A stretch of DNA of 32,000 nucleotides from Nitrosomonas europaea (GTDB lineage Bacteria > Pseudomonadota > Gammaproteobacteria > Burkholderiales > Nitrosomonadaceae): NCBI RefSeq assembly GCF_900167395.1, contig NZ_FUWK01000033.1:1-32000 (forward strand), given 5' to 3'. The notes under the pieces are model-generated. The model searched no databases and had not been told where the DNA came from. It worked only from the letters and a program-made list of their open reading frames with translations. Below are positions 1 through 13,996 of this stretch, piece by piece. Position numbers and translations under genes: made by a program. Within the stretch, counting starts at the first letter, position 1, and each line of letters opens with the position of its first letter.

Positions 1-348
1 CAGGCCGGTGATGCGCCAGAAGGACGAAAGTTGCTGAAAACCCTGGAGAATAAGGGATTCTCTGACACTCACGTGATCATGGATAAAGCGTATGAAGGGG
101 ATGAAACCCGACAGTTGGTACTTGATCTGGGGATGATTCCAGTGGTGCCGCCAAAAGCAAATCGTGTGTCACCCTGGGAGTACGACGTTGAAATGTACAA
201 AAAGCGTAATGAGGTGGAACGGCTGTTTCGTCGCCTGAAGAGATTCAGAAGAATCTTCTCTCGCTTTGACAAGTTGGATTCAGTTTTCCGATTCTTCATC
301 CATTTCGCTCTGATCGTAGATTATTTAATTAGTGTTAACAGGCCCTAG
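1..348 (+). CDS. IS5-family (IS427/IS1031-like) DDE transposase, C-terminal part; the 5' end lies outside the window
   Basis: Frame 1 is open from base 1 (QAGDAPEGRKLLKTL...) to TAG at 346-348. The tail DKAYEGDETRQLVLDLGMIPVVPPKANR...YKKRNEVERLFRRLKRFRRIFSRFDKL is the characteristic C-terminal DDE block of IS5-family transposases. The IS end should lie within a few tens of bp after the stop, but its partner IR is outside the window. Confidence 0.85.
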   Translation, partial: QAGDAPEGRKLLKTLENKGFSDTHVIMDKAYEGDETRQLVLDLGMIPVVPPKANRVSPWEYDVEMYKKRNEVERLFRRLKRFRRIFSRFDKLDSVFRFFIHFALIVDYLISVNRP

Positions 349-433
349 TTAACCGGCCGTCGGAGTGCCGAAAGCGTGGAGGGAACCTGCAAGTGCAGCT
401 TCTTGGCGGTCCGCTCGAAGCGACGGTTAGCCC

Positions 434-1048
434 TCATGCGGTACCTAGCAAAGAGTTAAGGGTTCTTGTACCTGAAGGCGATAATAACCAGCCGAGTGCT
501 CCGCAGTTGAGTATGACGGTAACCCAGAACGTGGTTTGGAATGACGCTTTGGCTGACTTGTGCCGAAGTAGTCGCTGTGCGGCCAGAGCACCGGGCCAAC
601 CACCGAGAAGGGCGAATAAATGCAATGTACTTTCCTGGATTCGCCATTGATTCCGTAAGGCTGCGGATTTGTCGAATGCGTAGGCGAAGAAGGCAACGAT
701 ACTTGCAATGGTGTAAAACGCGAGGACAGGACTGGGAAGCCGGCCAGCGACGACGACACCAACGACAAAGATCAGGAAACAAACAGCGAATAGTGGGGGA
801 AGGCTGCTGCGGCTCGGAGCCTTAGGCGGTGTGGGCTGTTCGCCAACAAACGCGACAGCTTTCGCTTGGGAGCGGCCTTTACTATCGACCGTGAGTTCAT
901 AGGTGACGAGTTCGTTTCCTTCTGGCCGGCGCTGCCGGCTGGAAAACGAGTTGATATGTACAAAGATTTGCTCTCCGCCGCCGTTGGGTGTGACGAAGCC
1001 AAAGCCTTTGTCATCCTTCCACGTGGTAATTCGGCCTTGATAACGCAT
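434..1048 (-). CDS. Cold-shock domain fused to a DUF1294 membrane domain
   Basis: ATG at 1048, TGA at 434-436. The N-terminus MRYQGRITTWKDDKGFGFVTPNGGGEQIFVHINSF is a canonical CspA-like OB fold (KGFGF motif). A Pro-rich linker is followed by several hydrophobic helices containing HLFALLGGWPGALAAQRLLRHKS, typical of DUF1294. The architecture is recurrent but functionally uncharacterised. Confidence 0.85.
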   Translation of the reverse strand: MRYQGRITTWKDDKGFGFVTPNGGGEQIFVHINSFSSRQRRPEGNELVTYELTVDSKGRSQAKAVAFVGEQPTPPKAPSRSSLPPLFAVCFLIFVVGVVVAGRLPSPVLAFYTIASIVAFFAYAFDKSAALRNQWRIQESTLHLFALLGGWPGALAAQRLLRHKSAKASFQTTFWVTVILNCGALGWLLSPSGTRTLNSLLGTA

Positions 1049-1132
1049 ATCGATTTGATGAGAGGGCTAACATCTAAATTCACCGGTGCGCCGCCGCAGC
1101 GCGTAGCGCGGAGGTGTCCGCCCCAACGGCTG

Positions 1133-1700
1133 GTTAGATTTCATTTTGTGATCTTGGCCTTTTCGGTGGCAGCCACAAGCCCCTTTAGGAATCGGATTCC
1201 CTTCTCCAGCTCGTCGCGTTTAACTTTGTGGGGTTCGGCGCTTGCATGAAGAGCGGTGTTTGCCTTATGGGCGGCGTCCCCGCGTTTAGCCACCAGTGAA
1301 TCCAGCACTTTCTTCGAGGTGCTACTGTCGTAATTCTCCCACACCCAATCCTTGGTGATGTCCACGTCGAAGTAGTCGATAAAGATACGCCGGGTACGTT
1401 CATCATTTGGGTTGAAAAAACGCTTGAGATCTTCCTCAAGACGGCGCCGTACAAATTTTCCTAGAGGGCTCCCTTCTACCGCTTGAAGCCACGTGTCAAT
1501 CTCTGACTGGAGACGATCCTTAACGTAGGTTTCCCATGCCGCCAGTGCCATGACCAGTCCAGCGCGCTTCAAGACTTCGCCGTTGTGGCCGTTTGGCACT
1601 GTCTTCTCCGCGTCGTGCCTCGCGAGGAGATCCTCAGCGTCTCGGATGGCTCTTTCGAATGCGTCGAATGCTTTGGTCATGGCTGGTAATGAAATCTAAC
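1133..1700. repeat. Perfect 13-bp inverted repeat pair bracketing the HEPN ORF (arms 1133-1145 and 1688-1700)
   Basis: Plus strand 1133-1145 reads gttagatttcatt. Plus strand 1688-1700 reads aatgaaatctaac, its exact reverse complement. One arm overlaps the stop codon; the other ends 7 nt upstream of the ATG. Confidence 0.9.
1141..1680 (-). CDS. Stand-alone HEPN-domain protein (putative RNase), RiboL-PSP-HEPN-like layout
   Basis: ATG at 1680, TGA at 1141-1143; 179 aa, predicted all-helical. R133-GDAA-H138 fits the HEPN Rx4-6H motif in the C-terminal third. It is preceded by the conserved-looking helix LVMALAAWETYVKD. Family placement is from memory of HEPN architectures, not from a search. Confidence 0.6.
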   Translation of the reverse strand: MTKAFDAFERAIRDAEDLLARHDAEKTVPNGHNGEVLKRAGLVMALAAWETYVKDRLQSEIDTWLQAVEGSPLGKFVRRRLEEDLKRFFNPNDERTRRIFIDYFDVDITKDWVWENYDSSTSKKVLDSLVAKRGDAAHKANTALHASAEPHKVKRDELEKGIRFLKGLVAATEKAKITK

Positions 1701-1703
1701 GTT

Positions 1704-1725
1704 TATGCACCGTAAACGGTGCATA
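1704..1725. promoter_or_regulatory. Perfect palindrome (9-bp arms, 4-nt spacer) just upstream of the HEPN gene; candidate operator or 5' hairpin
   Basis: tatgcaccg-taaa-cggtgcata at 1704-1725. It lies 3 nt outside the right IR arm and 24 nt upstream of the ATG at 1680. Confidence 0.4.
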
Positions 1726-2010
1726 CTTCTTTGTAAAAGGGTGTATAACAAAACTCATTATTCAGTAAGGTTCTGAGTTAAAAAGAATTTAATAAATTAA
1801 ATATCGCGATCTTCTGTTTTGATGACACCTTGCTCATTCGATCAGCTTCGCGGCAGCCTGCTACTCTGAGCAGGAGAAAATCAGCTCCTTTAAAATTTCA
1901 GAAATGAGGTTTCAGGTATTTTGCTGCGTTTGCAGTTGATCTTAATCAGCGAGCAAAGGAGGAATTATCTGTTTATTGCGGTGAGAATGAGGGTGACTGA
2001 TATCCTGCCA

Positions 2011-2391
2011 TCAGCTTTCATCAAACGCGTTTCTGATCCATTCGATTTCATTTTCCCGGTTGCCACTGATCAGGACTGCATCGAAGCGGCAGGGAAAGTC
2101 ACCTTCATGTCCCGCCAGATAATGACGGGCGGTGCGTATCAGTCTGGACTGCTTGGCAGCGGTGATGCTGGCGGCTGCGCCACCAAACCGGTCACTGGAG
2201 CGCATCCTGACTTCAACGAACACTACTGTATCGTCCTCCCGCATGATCAGGTCGATTTCACCGAAGCGGCAGCGGTAATTTTTTTCCAGCAACGTCAGTT
2301 TCTGCTGCTGGAGAAAGGCAGCGGCGCACTGCTCGGCATCACTGCCTTTGTTTCCTGCGGATGACATGGGAGTGTCAGTAACTATTGGCAA
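2011..2391 (-). CDS. yraN: YraN family (UPF0102) endonuclease-like protein
   Basis: GEIDLIMREDDTVVFVEVRMRSSDRFGGAAASITAAKQSRLIRTARHYL...CRFDAVLISG...IEWIRNAFD closely parallels E. coli YraN. The start could be the second Met at 2367. Confidence 0.85.
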   Translation of the reverse strand: MPIVTDTPMSSAGNKGSDAEQCAAAFLQQQKLTLLEKNYRCRFGEIDLIMREDDTVVFVEVRMRSSDRFGGAAASITAAKQSRLIRTARHYLAGHEGDFPCRFDAVLISGNRENEIEWIRNAFDES

Positions 2392-2473: not shown

Positions 2474-4261
2474 TTATCCATGCGCTCTCATCTTTTCTCC
2501 GGTTTGTACTTGCCACAGGTTGGTGTACAGACCGTTACGCGCCAGGAGGGCCTCGTGTGTACCGGTTTCCACTACTTCACCCTTGTCCAGTACATAAATG
2601 CAATGGGCATTACGGATGGTGGAAAGACGGTGTGCGATCACAATGGTGGTGCGGCCAACAGTAATCCGTTCCAGAGAACGCTGGATGGCTGCTTCTGTTT
2701 CATTATCCACTGCTGAAGTAGCTTCATCGAGTACCAGCACCGGCGGATTCTTGAGAACAGCACGGGCAATCGAGATGCGCTGTCGCTGGCCGCCGGAGAG
2801 TTTCTGCCCGCGTTCGCCTACGATGGTCTGATAATCATCCGGCAGTTCCATGATGAAATCATGTGCCTCAGCTGTTCTGGCTGCGGCGATGACATCTTCC
2901 ATATGGGCGCCGGACGAACCATACGCGATATTTTCATACACCGTGCCATGGAACAGATAAACGTCCTGGCTGACCAGACCGATCGATTTGCGCAGATCAT
3001 GCAGGCGCAAATCACGGATATCGTGACCATCCAGCAGAATACGTCCTTGTTGCGGCTCGTAGAAACGGAGCAGCAGTTTGACTATCGTACTCTTGCCGCT
3101 GCCGGTAGCCCCGACCAGTGCAATTGTCTGGCCGGCATGAACAGTCAGGGAAAGATGGTTCAGTGTCGATGCGCGCCGCTCATAGTTGAAGCTGATATCG
3201 TCAAAAATGATTTCGCCGCTGACCTGTGCCGCGGGTAGTGTTTGCGGCCCGTCTGTAATGGTCGGTTGAGCCTGTAATAAATCCAGCACGCGGTGTGTGG
3301 AGGCCATCGCGCGCTGGTACAGATCGAGTGTTTCCCCCAGGCGAGTGAGCGGCCACAGCAGGCGCTGGGTCATGAATACCAGAATGCTGTACGCGCCGAC
3401 ATTCAGTTCGCCGCCAGCAGCCATTAGCCCCGCTGCAATCATGATGGCACTGAAACCGAGTGCGATCACCATACGGATGATCGGTACAAAGGCAGCACTG
3501 AGGGCAATCGCGTGCTGATTCTTTTCCTGATAGATCTGGCTTTCGCGCTCAATCTGGCGTAATTCATACGGTTCAGTCGTATAACTTTTGATGGTGGCAA
3601 TGCCGCCAAGATTATTGGACAGATAGCTGTTCAGAATGCTGACCTGTTCGCGGACGGCCATATAGCGCGGAGCAATGCGTTTCTGAAACAGGTAGGAACC
3701 GGCCACGACGAATGGCATGGGCAATAACGCCATCCATGCCACGCCAGGTGTCAGGTAGATGAACATGCCACCCACTGTGATGACGGTGGTCAGAAGCTGA
3801 ATGAGGTCATTTGCTCCGACATCCAGAAACCGCTCCAGCTGATTGATGTCATCGTTCAGGATCGCCATCATCCCGCCGGTGCTGCGTGCCTCGAAGTAGG
3901 CCAGCTCCAGTTTCTGAACATGATCATAGGCATCCAGGCGCAACGTATGCTGAATACTCTGCGCCAGGTTGCGCCAGCAGAGCTTGAGCAGATATTCCCA
4001 GATGGATTCGAATCCCCAGACGATGAGGGTGATCGTAGCCAGTATCCAGAGCTGGGTCGAGACCTCCGGAAATCCCAGCCGGGCAAATACCGAAGATTGC
4101 TGATTGACGACGATGTCTACTGCCATCCCTATCAATACCGGCGGCGCCAGATCGAACAGCTTATTGAGAATCGAAAATAATGTAGCCAGCCAGATACGGC
4201 CGCGAAAAGCATGGCCGTAGCGCAGCAGGCGAATCAGCGGAGCGGATGAATGATTGGACAT
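2474..4261 (-). CDS. ABC exporter, fused permease/ATP-binding protein (MsbA/MdlB-like)
   Basis: Six-TM domain followed by Walker A GATGSGKST, signature LSGGQRQR, Walker B VLVLDEATSAVD and the H-loop IAHRL. The ORF is open to 4423. I place the start at ATG 4261 (MSNHSSAPLIRLLRY...) because the 54 upstream residues look non-native and would almost reach rsmI. Confidence 0.85.
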   Translation of the reverse strand: MSNHSSAPLIRLLRYGHAFRGRIWLATLFSILNKLFDLAPPVLIGMAVDIVVNQQSSVFARLGFPEVSTQLWILATITLIVWGFESIWEYLLKLCWRNLAQSIQHTLRLDAYDHVQKLELAYFEARSTGGMMAILNDDINQLERFLDVGANDLIQLLTTVITVGGMFIYLTPGVAWMALLPMPFVVAGSYLFQKRIAPRYMAVREQVSILNSYLSNNLGGIATIKSYTTEPYELRQIERESQIYQEKNQHAIALSAAFVPIIRMVIALGFSAIMIAAGLMAAGGELNVGAYSILVFMTQRLLWPLTRLGETLDLYQRAMASTHRVLDLLQAQPTITDGPQTLPAAQVSGEIIFDDISFNYERRASTLNHLSLTVHAGQTIALVGATGSGKSTIVKLLLRFYEPQQGRILLDGHDIRDLRLHDLRKSIGLVSQDVYLFHGTVYENIAYGSSGAHMEDVIAAARTAEAHDFIMELPDDYQTIVGERGQKLSGGQRQRISIARAVLKNPPVLVLDEATSAVDNETEAAIQRSLERITVGRTTIVIAHRLSTIRNAHCIYVLDKGEVVETGTHEALLARNGLYTNLWQVQTGEKMRAHG

Positions 4262-5343: not shown

Positions 5344-6396
5344 TCATGAGTCACAATCTTTTTCTTTCCTGCGATTAAACTCGCGATAAATGCTCGGCGC
5401 CACGCCGATCCAGCGCTTGAAGGCGAGATTGAACGCCGGGAGTGCCGTATATCCCAGCAGGCCACAGATGTTGCTGATGGGAACATCGGTCGTTTCCAGC
5501 ATCTCGCATGCAAGTGATTCCCTCACCTTGTCCAGGATCGCCGAAAAGCTGGTGTTTTCCTGCTGCAGCAGGCGCTGCAGCTTCTTTGGACTGAGTCCCA
5601 GCGATACCGCGAAGTACTCGAGATTGCACAGGCTGGTATTGAGCACGATCGGGATGCCAGCGGCGACGGTTGCCGCGACCGACTGATCATAGAGCGGCAT
5701 CTTGGCAATCCGGTAACGCAGATAGAGATCGAGCAATGGCTCGAGTCCGGCCAGGCGACCATTGGTCGGTCGATTGAGATATTCATGCGGGAATACGAGC
5801 TCGTTGTGCGCAGCTTCGAACTCGACCGGGCAGTCGAAAAGTGCTTCATGCGGTTGCGTGTCACAAGGACGGGCATGGCGGAACCGGATGAGATGGGCTT
5901 TTTCATCTGTAGCATCGATCACGGTTCTGGCCATTCGGTAGAATGTAGCGACCAGTCCTTCTGTCTGCTGGCGCGGGGATTTTGCCAGGGGATCCTTCAA
6001 CAGCCGCACGTATGCGAACGGGCCGCCGTCCCTGATCAGTAACGGAACCCAGGCATTCGTGTAGTAGCGCGCGTAGCGCTCGCATGCGTCAAGCCATTCT
6101 TCAAAGGTGTGCGTGATCTGTGAAAGAAAGATTGCTGCTCCTGCGGTGGGATAAGTATTCGGCAGCGAAAAAGCATGATCCAGGCCGAAGTTCGGACGTC
6201 CTAGTTCCTGCGCCGCTAGTTCGCAGAATATACCCTGGCGGGGCCAGGAGATGAGTATGTCGGGATTGCTGAACGCTTCCCTTGGCAGCCCTGCCTGGTC
6301 GGCCAGGGTATGGAGATCACCACCGGATGAATGGACGAGATCATCGAATCCAAACAGGCAATTCGGACGGATGTAGGGCTCTCGCCGCCCAATCAT
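5344..6396 (-). CDS. AraC-family transcriptional regulator with an N-terminal AraC-binding-like domain
   Basis: C-terminal HTH ...SNICGLLGYTALPAFNLAFKRWIGVAPSIYRE. The ORF is open to a TTG at 6534. ATG 6396 (MIGRREPYIRPN...) gives a typical length of about 350 aa, and the extra 46 aa are low-complexity. Confidence 0.8.
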   Translation of the reverse strand: MIGRREPYIRPNCLFGFDDLVHSSGGDLHTLADQAGLPREAFSNPDILISWPRQGIFCELAAQELGRPNFGLDHAFSLPNTYPTAGAAIFLSQITHTFEEWLDACERYARYYTNAWVPLLIRDGGPFAYVRLLKDPLAKSPRQQTEGLVATFYRMARTVIDATDEKAHLIRFRHARPCDTQPHEALFDCPVEFEAAHNELVFPHEYLNRPTNGRLAGLEPLLDLYLRYRIAKMPLYDQSVAATVAAGIPIVLNTSLCNLEYFAVSLGLSPKKLQRLLQQENTSFSAILDKVRESLACEMLETTDVPISNICGLLGYTALPAFNLAFKRWIGVAPSIYREFNRRKEKDCDS

Positions 6397-10352: not shown

Positions 10353-11816
10353 TCAGAGAACGGGCGGCATCATGCCGCGATGAAATATCCATGCAACCCC
10401 GTAAGCAATCGGGGCAATGATGCCGAACAGCGCAATTGCATAGAGTAATGCCAACTTCCCCATTCCTTTGAGCTTGCTGAAGTCAGTTATGATGCCGATG
10501 CTGATAAAGGTGAGCATGAACATCATGTTACGCATTGGCCCCTCGACTGCGGCAGCAGCTTTATGCAAGGTTTCAGCGGCTTCTGATCCGCTGGAGGCGA
10601 GCATGATGTACGAAAACCAGACCAGGAGATAACCCAGTACAAATTTCGGGAACCGGTGCCAGATTTCCATCAGTCCGATTTTGGACTGGCCGGGTTTGCG
10701 TTCTACTTTATATACCCACACCAGCGCCAGAACGAAGGCCCAGACACCGATAAACATATCGATCCAGATTTTCGTGGTCAGTGATGCCATCAAAATCCAG
10801 CCTTCTTTCCATACGATGCCCAGGTTGGCCTCGGCATTGGCACGCATCAATTCATCCAGCATGGCTCCGGCAGCTGCATCGGCACCATCTGTCTTGACTG
10901 TCAGCCCCAGAGCGGAGCCGTTGACGATAGGCTGCTCCGGTGCTATTGCCGTATAAAACCCCGGCAGGATGATGAGTTCGAACATGGCGAAGATCACGAC
11001 CAGAATCGAGACGAATGCCGGAAGTGCCGGGCGGGCACGAATGGCACCGGCGGTGGCGATGGCAGCCGATATGCCGCAGATGGAAATGCCGGAAGAAAGG
11101 ACCGCTGCGGCATCACGTGATAAATGGAATACTCTGCGGCCAAGCGCATAGACGATCGGCCAGAACAGCATATAGGCGACAAAAGTAGCCGCAACCCCGG
11201 TCATGACCAGTTCTGTAATGAAACCGGCTGCTTCGATGGACATGACGCCGATTTTGATACCCAGGAATACGATTGCCGTTTTGATGAACCATTCCGGTTT
11301 TGCTGCTTCGTTGAGAAATCTGGCGGTATTTTTGAAGAAATTGCCGATGACGAGCCCGACCAGCAACGCCAGCAGGTAAGAAAAACCGCTGCCGAGAGAC
11401 AATCCCCAGGACAGGCCATATTTGTCCATTTCATAGACAGAGGCTTTGAAATGAGCTTCATTGCCGATGATCCAGATGACCCAGGTCATGATGAAAAGAA
11501 TGGTCCAACCGATAAAAAACTGTTTCAGGTCAAATTTCATCGACCATGCTGCCAGACAGGTCAGGGCGGTAAATACCAGATAAGTCACCAGTAACGACAA
11601 TGCCGGATGCCATTCCGGCTTGCCACTGGATTTCAGTACGCCTTCGATGGAAAATTTTTCCCATACCCAGGTGTCGGGTTTGGCCATCCAGCCGGTCAGC
11701 TCCCATCCCCAGAGTGAACTGACGCTCGCCATGAACATGATCAATCCCAGCCAGACTGCCCACCAGTCTTCCGTTCTGGCCATACCTGAATACCATTTGT
11801 CATTCATTGCATTCAT
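10353..11816 (-). CDS. YeiH/UPF0324-family (putative sulfate-exporter family) integral membrane protein, extended 487-aa form
   Basis: Polytopic membrane protein with the family-typical SSGISICGISAAIATAGAI motif and an inserted soluble loop (APEQPIVNGSALGLTVKTDGADAAAGAMLDELMRANAEANLG). The SD GAGGAAAC lies upstream of ATG 11816. Confidence 0.7.
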   Translation of the reverse strand: MNAMNDKWYSGMARTEDWWAVWLGLIMFMASVSSLWGWELTGWMAKPDTWVWEKFSIEGVLKSSGKPEWHPALSLLVTYLVFTALTCLAAWSMKFDLKQFFIGWTILFIMTWVIWIIGNEAHFKASVYEMDKYGLSWGLSLGSGFSYLLALLVGLVIGNFFKNTARFLNEAAKPEWFIKTAIVFLGIKIGVMSIEAAGFITELVMTGVAATFVAYMLFWPIVYALGRRVFHLSRDAAAVLSSGISICGISAAIATAGAIRARPALPAFVSILVVIFAMFELIILPGFYTAIAPEQPIVNGSALGLTVKTDGADAAAGAMLDELMRANAEANLGIVWKEGWILMASLTTKIWIDMFIGVWAFVLALVWVYKVERKPGQSKIGLMEIWHRFPKFVLGYLLVWFSYIMLASSGSEAAETLHKAAAAVEGPMRNMMFMLTFISIGIITDFSKLKGMGKLALLYAIALFGIIAPIAYGVAWIFHRGMMPPVL

Positions 11817-12749: not shown

Positions 12750-12971
12750 TCGAAAAAATCGGATTTGCATATAAATGTTTCTTGTTGCAGCCGGCTGATT
12801 GGCTGACAGTTTCAAATTTCCGATAAATATTTTTTCACGGCCGGGAAAGCATTCTCTGGTTTTCTACCCGGCCGACGCTTTCTGCCAGCTTTCGCCTGTT
12901 TTTTGCCAAGCCAGCCTCGTATTTCGATATTGCCAGCCAGACCCTGTTTTCGGTCCGCCAGCCCTTGGGTG

Positions 12972-13241
12972 GGAACCTCTGCACGAATCCCACATGGCCG
13001 CACACTGTGTTTTGCGGATGGAATGCAAGGCGAGTGAGGTAGTGAATGGTGACCCCTTCACGACGAACTCAACGCTGCAGTCCGTCTGCAAAATCAGTGC
13101 CCTCAGGGTTGTGGCAAAATCACGCGCTCGCTGTGTCGTGCGCCTCGGCATCGTAGAATAACTACGACCTTCGTTGCGCTCCTTGCGATCATCATGATTT
13201 TGCCCGCAATGCGGTTCATGGAGGATTCGTGCAGAGGTTCC
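12972..13241. repeat. 270-bp non-coding element bounded by 19-bp perfect inverted repeats (MITE-like or structured RNA)
   Basis: ggaacctctgcacgaatcc at 12972-12990 and its exact reverse complement ggattcgtgcagaggttcc at 13223-13241. Pairing continues imperfectly inward (catgg/aaccgc). An internal imperfect hairpin spans about 13113-13204, centred on tcgtag-aataa-ctacga. Confidence 0.7.
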
Positions 13242-13297
13242 TTAAAAATCCGTCAGTACATGTCGTGCTGTCAGTTTAATTTCAGGAGCGTAATCGT

Positions 13298-13996
13298 ATG
13301 TTGTCTTTATGCAGAATCATCATCAGTCTCTTGCTGGTCGGCTTGAGTGGTCAGGCTGCTGCCGATATTTCCAACAGCCCGAATCCTTATGATGCCGGGT
13401 ATGGTTTCGATACACCGGATGAGGCCGGCTGGGGTGGCTGGATGCGAGGTGGTGCAAGTACGCTTTATGCCGAGTGGGATACCATTTCCGATGCCAGTTA
13501 TGGTGGTAGTGGTGATCGGACAGCTGCGCCTGATATAGGTACCCATAACGTGGCTGATGCTTATCTTAGTTGGAACCCGGGTGTTTTTGTCACCAGCACG
13601 GGTAATCTCATTACCCCTAGTGTAGTGCAAGAATTCTTCATTCGTATATCGCCCGTATCTTTGTTCAGCGGCCCGCTCGTCGTTGCATTGCAGGTCGAGA
13701 TGTGGGGAGATGAGCCTGCTGCGCCTCTGCTCAATGGTCTTGCTGCATCCAGCTGGACCAGGACTTTCACGGGCACTTCCGTGACCGATCATGATTTGAA
13801 CCAGTATCTTGGGCTGTGGTATTTTGCCAACACGGTAAATCATTTCGAGTTTGATCTTACAAATCAACCGTTTATATCGCTTGCGCAAGTGGCGGTGGAT
13901 ATCGCCCAGGTATCGGAACCGTACATGCTGGCTATCATGCTGACTGGCCTGATTCTGATTGGATCGATGACACGGTACCGCAGCAGACCAATCTGA
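13298..13996 (+). CDS. PEP-CTERM sorting-domain protein (exosortase substrate), secreted
   Basis: Signal peptide MLSLCRIIISLLLVGLSGQAAA. The C-terminus VSEP-YMLAIMLTGLILIGSM-TRYRSR has the (P/S)EP motif, TM helix and basic tail of the PEP-CTERM signal. The SD AGGAG lies 9 nt upstream of the ATG. Confidence 0.7.
   Translation: MLSLCRIIISLLLVGLSGQAAADISNSPNPYDAGYGFDTPDEAGWGGWMRGGASTLYAEWDTISDASYGGSGDRTAAPDIGTHNVADAYLSWNPGVFVTSTGNLITPSVVQEFFIRISPVSLFSGPLVVALQVEMWGDEPAAPLLNGLAASSWTRTFTGTSVTDHDLNQYLGLWYFANTVNHFEFDLTNQPFISLAQVAVDIAQVSEPYMLAIMLTGLILIGSMTRYRSRPI

Follow-up and report, generated by a model that had tools for sequence, protein, structure and literature searches.

The RiboL-PSP-HEPN gene near the left edge of a 32,000-nt stretch of Nitrosomonas europaea ATCC 19718 (AL954747, ~772,680-804,679; hereafter the window, numbered from its first nucleotide) is very probably an integron cassette that occupies the first position in a small array, and the perfect 13-bp inverted repeat that brackets it is best explained as the signature of its ends (probability about 0.9). 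To judge from its sequence, the region holds two such cassettes in tandem, 629 and 717 bp long. A HEPN cassette in a Nitrosomonas array devoid of an integrase gene is explained by known biology. The potential for novelty lies only in the multi-copy, yraN-linked non-coding sequence, here named the platform, from which the array starts. The striking perfect repeat around a toxin gene is left behind by integron recombination as a by-product; to read it as a new riboregulator would be a false lead, which this result prevents.

The open reading frame (ORF) of the HEPN gene (1141..1680, minus strand) encodes 179 residues (Pfam PF18735, E = 5.5e-22). Direct reading of the sequence and a repeat finder both give a perfect inverted repeat, GTTAGATTTCATT at 1133-1145 against AATGAAATCTAAC at 1688-1700, with 13 of 13 positions complementary and 542 nt between the arms. 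As stated in the initial annotation of this DNA, the arms bracket the ORF: the left one covers the stop codon (1141-1143) and the right one ends 7 nt from the ATG (1678-1680). The same annotation was also correct in finding no AGGAG-like Shine-Dalgarno sequence 5' of the start codon (TTCATTACCAGCC-ATG).

On the coding strand, the 5' arm (1688..1700) reads GTTAGATTTCATT and the 3' arm (1133..1145) reads AATGAAATCTAAC, that is GTTAGAT(TTCATT) and (AATGAA)ATCTAAC. The first seven nucleotides of the 5' arm are a core site R', GTTAGAT (1700→1694; arrows denote reading on the minus strand), which matches the consensus GTTRRRY and lies 20 nt before the HEPN ATG. Strand exchange by integron integrases takes place directly after the first base of GTTRRRY (PMC8876359). 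At this site the crossover point falls between G1700 and T1699, and the HEPN cassette begins at T1699, inside the core. The 3' arm holds the stop codon TGA and an inverse core R'', ATCTAAC (1139→1133), which matches RYYYAAC and is the first box of the cassette's attC. This attC spans 75 nt (1065..1139, minus strand) from R'' ATCTAAC to R' GTTAGCC (1071→1065), is homologous to the attC of an orthologous cassette (L047; L numbers designate the loci used for comparison) and has a decayed L' half. Its RYYYAAC start is complementary to the first bases of the cassette. The whole cassette starts with TTAGAT..., includes the G of the core that follows and covers 1071..1699 (minus strand; 629 bp).

The neighbouring ORF (434..1048, minus strand) combines a cold-shock domain (CSD) with DUF1294 according to Pfam, and is organized in the same way within a cassette of 717 bp (354..1070, minus strand). 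It is bracketed by a 10-bp perfect inverted repeat, GTTAGCCCTC (1071→1062) and GAGGGCTAAC (435→426), stop codon included, and the core GTTAGCC precedes its ATG by 16 nt (1049-1064). The second attC (432→348) is an 85-nt imperfect palindrome with R'' GGCTAAC and R' GTTAACT (354→348), and in its circular form it yields a hairpin with z = -4.35.

The initial claim that a 13-mer match placed so precisely around one ORF is very unlikely by chance holds for the placement of the arms, but a bare 13-bp inverted repeat in 32 kb is not rare. In dinucleotide shuffles of the window, the mean number of perfect 13-bp inverted repeats with a gap of 100-1000 nt was 0.59 and 35% of the shuffles had one or more; the real window contains two further repeats of this kind. 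We put the chance of placement at both ends of one ORF at ~1e-5 per ORF, a figure that is our estimate and not a computed value. The repeat is considered non-random because it is placed at both ends of the ORF, because its arms correspond to the integron core consensus, because the neighbouring ORF is bracketed alike and because the arms covary across cassettes.

The mobility of the HEPN cassette is apparent from two sides: it resides in different arrays (L047-L049, L055 and L053), and another cassette occupies its window site in a close relative (L021). In L047-L049, a HEPN protein 84% identical to that of the window is encoded in another array, preceded by the attC of another cassette. Its arms, GTTAGACCTCATT and AATGAGGTCTAAC, are found at the same offsets. 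The 13-bp repeat is kept, and two positions are changed on both sides, from TT/AA to CC/GG, which is a compensatory change. In L055, a textbook array that also holds ParE and HicAB cassettes, the HEPN protein is 74% identical and its gene is bracketed by GTTAGAGCTCA and TGAGCTCTAAC; the corresponding arms in L053 are GTTAGAGA and TCTCTAAC. Four independent HEPN cassettes with different neighbours measure 566-568 nt between the upstream core, counted from its G, and R'', counted to its C. In L021, the context autotransporter-AraC-rsmI-ABC-yraN-platform is the same as in the window. The HEPN and CSD-DUF1294 genes are replaced there by a cassette that encodes 98 aa and carries a 59-nt attC, and the same YoeB/YefM genes follow, joined at G|TTCGGT.

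The pairing of cassette ends extends to unrelated genes. Fifteen cassettes with unrelated genes show contiguous terminal pairing over 5-13 bp (median 10). The neighbouring cassette and 13 others share this architecture with the HEPN cassette. In the alignment of their arms, 87% of the cells are paired and compensatory changes are seen in 9 of the 13 pairs. The covariation score is 0.464, compared with 0.123 in shuffles, none of the 500 shuffles reaching the observed score, and pairing falls to 19-41% in controls with slid arms. Covariation of the arms in related loci, proposed earlier as a check, is thus indeed found, and the structure of attC at the DNA level accounts for it. Pairing of the ends over 10-13 bp, well past the 7-bp core and frequently taking in the stop codon, is common and covaries.

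A covariance model was built from 13 attC sites, all located outside the window, and displays the expected R/L architecture with covariation. Its best match in the window, 1139→1045 on the minus strand, starts exactly at 1139 (18.4 bits, E = 0.013, 64 kb searched), and the same model retrieves many independent attC sites on the cassette strand of Nitrosomonas platform loci. The bottom strands of the circular-form attC sites of L047 (-32 kcal/mol, z = -6.5) and L055 (z = -7.6) are predicted to fold into classical attC hairpins. In both, the two arms make up the R stem; a small internal loop separates it from the L stem, in which single bases bulge out. When the window attC is reconstituted in its circular form, the 13-bp R stem still closes, but the fold is weak (R stem only, z = -2.7).

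Together with the established integron model, these sequence comparisons indicate how the repeat arose. Upon integration of a circular cassette, its attC would be split at G|TT. The distal R' part (TTAGAT + TTCATT) would become the 5' end of the linear cassette, and the R'' part (AATGAA, which includes the stop codon, + ATCTAAC) would remain 3'. Once the cassette is excised as a single-stranded circle, the arms would pair again; their pairing would restore the outer R-box stem of the folded attC, the structure recognised by the integrase. Selection on this DNA hairpin would keep the arms complementary, and we attribute the conservation and covariation of the arms to it. The initial suggestion that the arms could be recombination sites of an excisable cassette thus proves essentially right, but the arms would not be two partner sites: each would supply one half of a single R-box stem, that of the attC belonging to this cassette.

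Overall, the HEPN unit shares with integron cassettes carrying an attC (59-base element) a GTTRRRY core at its 5' end, a RYYYAAC start of the attC and terminal self-complementarity. It is likewise a compact single-ORF unit, in tandem with other cassettes and found in other arrays. It differs from them by its decayed attC L box, by the absence of an integrase in cis and by a 13-bp pairing that stands at the top of the 5-13 bp range of the 15 cassettes. A number of points weigh against the assignment. The R' boxes GTTAGCC and GTTAACT fit GTTRRRY at six of seven positions. The HEPN attC of the window is atypical, with an L' half that does not pair with L'' and a modest model score of 18.4 bits, and no hairpin is obtained when it is folded as single-stranded DNA in its array context (z = -0.6). 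In the search of the window, the attC model had no match at the second attC (432→348). Neither Pfam nor tblastn detected an intI gene or pseudogene in the 32-kb window, in the adjoining 6 kb on its left side or in any locus that carries a platform; the tblastn query, IntI1, matched an IntI1 cluster at 100% identity. When proteins were searched with IntI1, only relatives at least 74% identical were obtained, none of them from Nitrosomonas, and the N. europaea intI locus was not retrieved. Finally, no resemblance of the platform to described attI sites was recognised; for attI1 no alignment was run. In addition, Pfam identified no tyrosine recombinase in the window.

Passages in two papers (PMC9229058, PMC3053210), citing Leon & Roy 2003, attribute to N. 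europaea a chromosomal integron with an active integrase. We infer that an IntI acting in trans made the cassette joints and that the yraN-linked platform, which ends in a palindrome, serves as an attI-type entry site. The N. europaea HEPN cassette itself is now probably poorly mobile, given the decayed L box of its attC and a 3-nt deletion in the platform spacer.

Three other explanations had been put forward for the repeat. The most developed one is a hok-like fold-back of the mRNA, in which the arms would pair in the HEPN transcript, close the ORF, mask the region where ribosomes load and silence a toxin mRNA. Folding of RNA 1712→1120 in silico does produce the 13-bp helix, in both the minimum free energy and the centroid structures, but the fold is no more stable than those of shuffled sequences (z = +0.19). 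The lack of a Shine-Dalgarno sequence before the ATG and the covariation of the arms in HEPN orthologues are also compatible with this idea, and an attC hairpin in an mRNA is a known obstacle to ribosomes (PMC8876359). However, terminal pairing of 5-13 bp also brackets cassettes with unrelated genes, which argues against gene-specific regulation, and the arms of the HEPN gene are canonical core sites. Moreover, the 5' arm stops 7 nt short of the AUG, which is left uncovered, and the 3' arm holds the stop codon, so that each translating ribosome would open the helix. Rfam returned nothing on 1-2600 at permissive E-values or on the whole window at gathering thresholds, and a sigma-70 promoter scan of 1000-2500 predicted no promoter that would give a transcript with defined ends. 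The resemblance to hok/sok is limited to a predicted long-range 5'-3' helix in a putative toxin mRNA. The HEPN protein has 179 residues and is not a small membrane peptide, neither an antisense RNA nor a mok-like overlapping frame is seen, and the helix is a generic feature of cassettes. We consider fold-back inhibition unnecessary and very unlikely as the reason for the repeat, although the predicted helix may have a minor effect on translation.

The two remaining proposals invoke DNA rearrangement. Perfect inverted repeats at both ends of one gene would suit an invertible switch that flips the HEPN gene. Yet the orientation of this gene relative to yraN and CSD-DUF1294 is constant in every contig shown (22 + 23 contigs read), and none of the public assemblies examined shows the opposite one. 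Pfam and tblastn with IntI1 reveal no recombinase gene next to it, the related strain L021 displays replacement and not inversion, and core sites explain the arms; we give inversion almost no credence. Similarly, a 13-bp terminal repeat around a small unit found in many taxa could recall a miniature transposon carrying HEPN between its terminal inverted repeats, but no target-site duplication is found (flanks ...AAC|GTTAG and CTAAC|CAGCC) and the window has no further copies. In addition, the sequence of the repeat varies between copies with compensatory changes, while complementarity and the GTT/AAC ends are kept, a behaviour typical of attC and not of the ends used by a single transposase. 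A transposon origin is accordingly extremely unlikely, and the integron cassette remains the preferred interpretation.

With respect to the array as a whole, a cluster of attC sites lacking integron-integrase is termed CALIN (IntegronFinder, PMC4889954). The present element is an integrase-less cassette array of this type by IntegronFinder definitions: it has attC sites at 1139→1065 and 432→348, a third one behind a second platform (L002 ~11354-11411), and no intI nearby. Since no intI lies beside the entry site and the array, it is not a complete integron, and the entry site has yraN upstream of it where an attI would have its cognate intI. CALINs are abundant and their origin is unclear. The window array resembles them by its two or more attC sites, the lack of a nearby intI and the associated insertion sequences (IS). 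It departs from them in that it starts at a conserved, reused entry site present in at least two copies per genome, each behind yraN. The definition of CALINs neither requires nor explains such an entry site (platform, palindrome and GTT). With a defined, conserved and reused entry site, the existence of a trans-acting integrase feeding such arrays becomes testable.

The platform is a conserved, AT-rich, non-coding sequence of 310 nt (1701..2010, minus strand) that extends from the stop codon of yraN (UPF0102; 2011..2367, minus strand; Pfam) to the crossover point; it is a candidate entry site of the attI type. When genomes and metagenomes were scanned for its pattern, it was located in N. eutropha Nm24 and Nm57, in one Nitrosomonas metagenome-assembled genome (MAG) and in many metagenomic contigs. 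Individual copies are found, besides the window, at L002 10578-10895 and in L011, L012, L013, L020-L024, L027 and L033. Copies and species are 83-92% identical in the platform, as compared to 70-81% at the third codon positions of yraN, and for this reason we consider the platform to be under constraint. A second yraN, 88% identical to that of the window and followed by its own platform, is located ~4.9 kb beyond the left edge of the window (L002 10221-10577). This second yraN-platform copy is at the distal end of the first array and starts a second array. Between a point ~60 nt upstream of the yraN ATG and GTTAG, the two N. europaea copies share 93% identity; beyond GTTAG they are unrelated. 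The first cassette behind the second platform encodes 134 aa and is different from HEPN; its 58-nt attC (L002 ~11354-11411) closely resembles a classical aadA-type 59-base element. The first cassette of the second array varies by strain (134 aa, DUF4136 or DUF2846; L002, L057, L060, L061, L064).

Twelve aligned platform copies are conserved through ...GTATGCACCGTTTRCGGTGCATA-CTRAAC-GTTA and then diverge into twelve different cassettes. In total, at least 12 different first cassettes are joined after ...GTATGCACCGTTTRCGGTGCATA-N3-6-GTTA, exactly at G|TT. Judged by these junctions, the platform behaves like an attI-type site. Some copies lie within arrays, behind other attC sites (L023, L033 and N. 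europaea copy 2).

Just before the crossover, the window platform contains the palindrome tatgcaccg-taaa-cggtgcata (9+4+9, 1704-1725). The palindrome had been reported correctly, but its proposed role as an operator of the HEPN gene does not hold, as the first cassettes that it precedes are of at least 12 different kinds. The other copies carry a longer palindrome (10+4+10), with the form GTATGCACCG-TTTR-CGGTGCATAC, followed by CTRAAC and then by GTTA. The window spacer after the palindrome is 3 nt shorter (AAC vs CTGAAC), a deletion seen only with the HEPN insertion. Two uncompensated mutations are present in the palindrome of L057/L064 (~5400-5425), the palindrome of L061 (~3895-3925) is truncated, and in L060 (~5369-5400) the platform reads ...ACAAAGAAGA|GTTCGAAATG and has no palindrome; from these sequences, the palindrome is dispensable or decaying in some copies. 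Two other roles for it were discarded. As an attC, it would have no R'' partner upstream and the 310-nt span would be far too long, and as the core of a tyrosine-recombinase site it would have a spacer of only 4 bp. RNAalifold on 12 platform copies gave no informative covariation, the sequence being too conserved. The palindrome read on the plus strand is the sole terminator-like hit in 1000-2500.

It is conceivable that there is no dedicated attI-like site here. A single insertion would have taken place at a secondary, attG-type GTT site after yraN and been duplicated later, and the platform would be conserved for another reason, for example as a yraN 3' untranslated region or terminator. The lack of an intI adjacent to the platform, the mutated, truncated or missing palindromes of L057, L061 and L060, the absence of RNA or structure covariation in the platform and the terminator-like hairpin on the plus strand all go in this direction. 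On the other hand, the junction falls on the same nucleotide for at least 12 different first cassettes from different strains and species, which would require repeated insertion, and the platform is more conserved than the synonymous sites of yraN. We therefore hold the single-insertion scenario to be unlikely. Tentatively, and from sequence comparison, the combination of yraN, the 310-nt platform, the 10-bp palindrome and GTT may instead constitute a cassette-capture site of Nitrosomonas that is possibly undescribed: an orphan attI-type site lacking an integrase in cis, with at least two diverged copies in each genome, some located in arrays, used repeatedly (at least 12 first cassettes) and perhaps endowed with a leader like ORF-11. 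A bolder version, in which the always-adjacent YraN, which we take to be a predicted nuclease of restriction-endonuclease fold, takes part in cassette recombination, is much less likely. One metagenome contig (L005, Ga0169447_103611) joins the upstream context of yraN copy 2 (YoeB/YefM, 84 aa) to HEPN-CSD. Either the two yraN-platform copies have recombined or the repeat was collapsed during assembly.

A speculative short ORF, MSFVIHPFTKKYAPFTVHKR* (1696..1758, minus strand), ends at the crossover, its stop codon TAG occupying positions 3-5 of the core GTTAGAT. It is open in all 16 distinct platform copies over 20-26 codons (14 in L060, which lacks the palindrome), with the pattern MSFVIHPFTKKYAPF(T/A)VHTER, and in most copies it terminates within the crossover core, where TAG or TAA fills positions 3-5. 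The palindrome is contained in codons 12-19, and the HEPN ATG follows the stop of the short ORF by 15 nt. Several features favour coding: the 3-nt indel of the spacer is in frame, the two spacer substitutions of copy 2 are synonymous, and one copy without the short-ORF ATG has a new in-frame ATG one codon upstream. Against it, no Shine-Dalgarno sequence is recognisable and a second frame is also open. ORF-11 of attI1 couples translation into cassettes without a ribosome-binding site (PMC8876359). By analogy, the short ORF may deliver ribosomes to cassettes that have no such site, for example HEPN; we regard this as a lead and not a result. Like attI1 in class 1 integrons, the platform is a conserved sequence that ends at the GTT crossover and is followed by different cassettes. 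As in ORF-11, the short ORF stops at a TAG in core positions 3-5, in the window 15 nt before a start codon devoid of a ribosome-binding site. Unlike attI1, the platform has no divergent intI and includes a 10-bp perfect palindrome.

Concerning the HEPN protein, the R-x4-H motif (R133...H138) is invariant in an alignment of 18 homologues, whereas PADLOC and NCBIfam give no match or functional name for it. The location of a HEPN gene with an R-x4-H RNase motif beside YoeB/YefM and CSD-type cassettes recalls the toxin and defence cassettes of sedentary chromosomal integrons, and homologous arrays hold ParE and HicAB. In contrast to such cassettes, the HEPN cassette contains no cognate antitoxin or partner gene and has no PADLOC match. 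Homologues are at most 89% identical in Methylomonas, and others occur in Verrucomicrobiales, Zhongshania and Vibrio, a taxonomic spread of sequences that fits horizontal movement. The genes of ~326 aa located upstream of the Methylomonas and Vibrio homologues are mutually unrelated, so that there is no conserved partner. A plasmid search returned distant HEPN homologues only. Several of the homologues in these taxa have only a decayed R'' remnant after the stop codon. At L035 5619-5640 (Methylomonas) and L038 5541-5560 (Verrucomicrobiales MAG), TGA-GGTCTAR is kept, and the 5' arm and the rest of the attC are lost. These two homologues look like fossil cassettes that became fixed in ordinary chromosomal contexts. 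A solo RiboL-PSP-HEPN gene with an intact R-x4-H motif is documented as a widely travelling cassette.

On the other side of the array, the window begins with the end of an IS5-family element (1..349, plus strand; IS = window 1-345), including the C-terminus of its transposase (31..348, Pfam DDE_Tnp_1). The element sits in CTAG (346-349), directly after R' of the second attC, and IS-free relatives have an uninterrupted sequence at this insertion point (L057 vs L002). The CTAG after the CSD attC carries the IS5-family element and an rve-type IS. IS elements are located directly 3' of attC R' sites at window 1-349, L002 7333-9160, L033 12177-12840 and L057 3694-3845; in L033, an IS whose transposase starts with MARFKP... 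abuts another attC, and a fragment of this IS is present between the CSD attC and the YoeB cassette in IS-free strains. IS elements may target the ends of attC sites.

Elsewhere in the window, a region with no Rfam match upstream of the gene at 13298..13996 contains a perfect inverted repeat of 19-21 bp, GGGAACCTCTGCACGAATCC and GGATTCGTGCAGAGGTTCC (12970-12990 and 13223-13243), which brackets ~230 bp of non-coding DNA.

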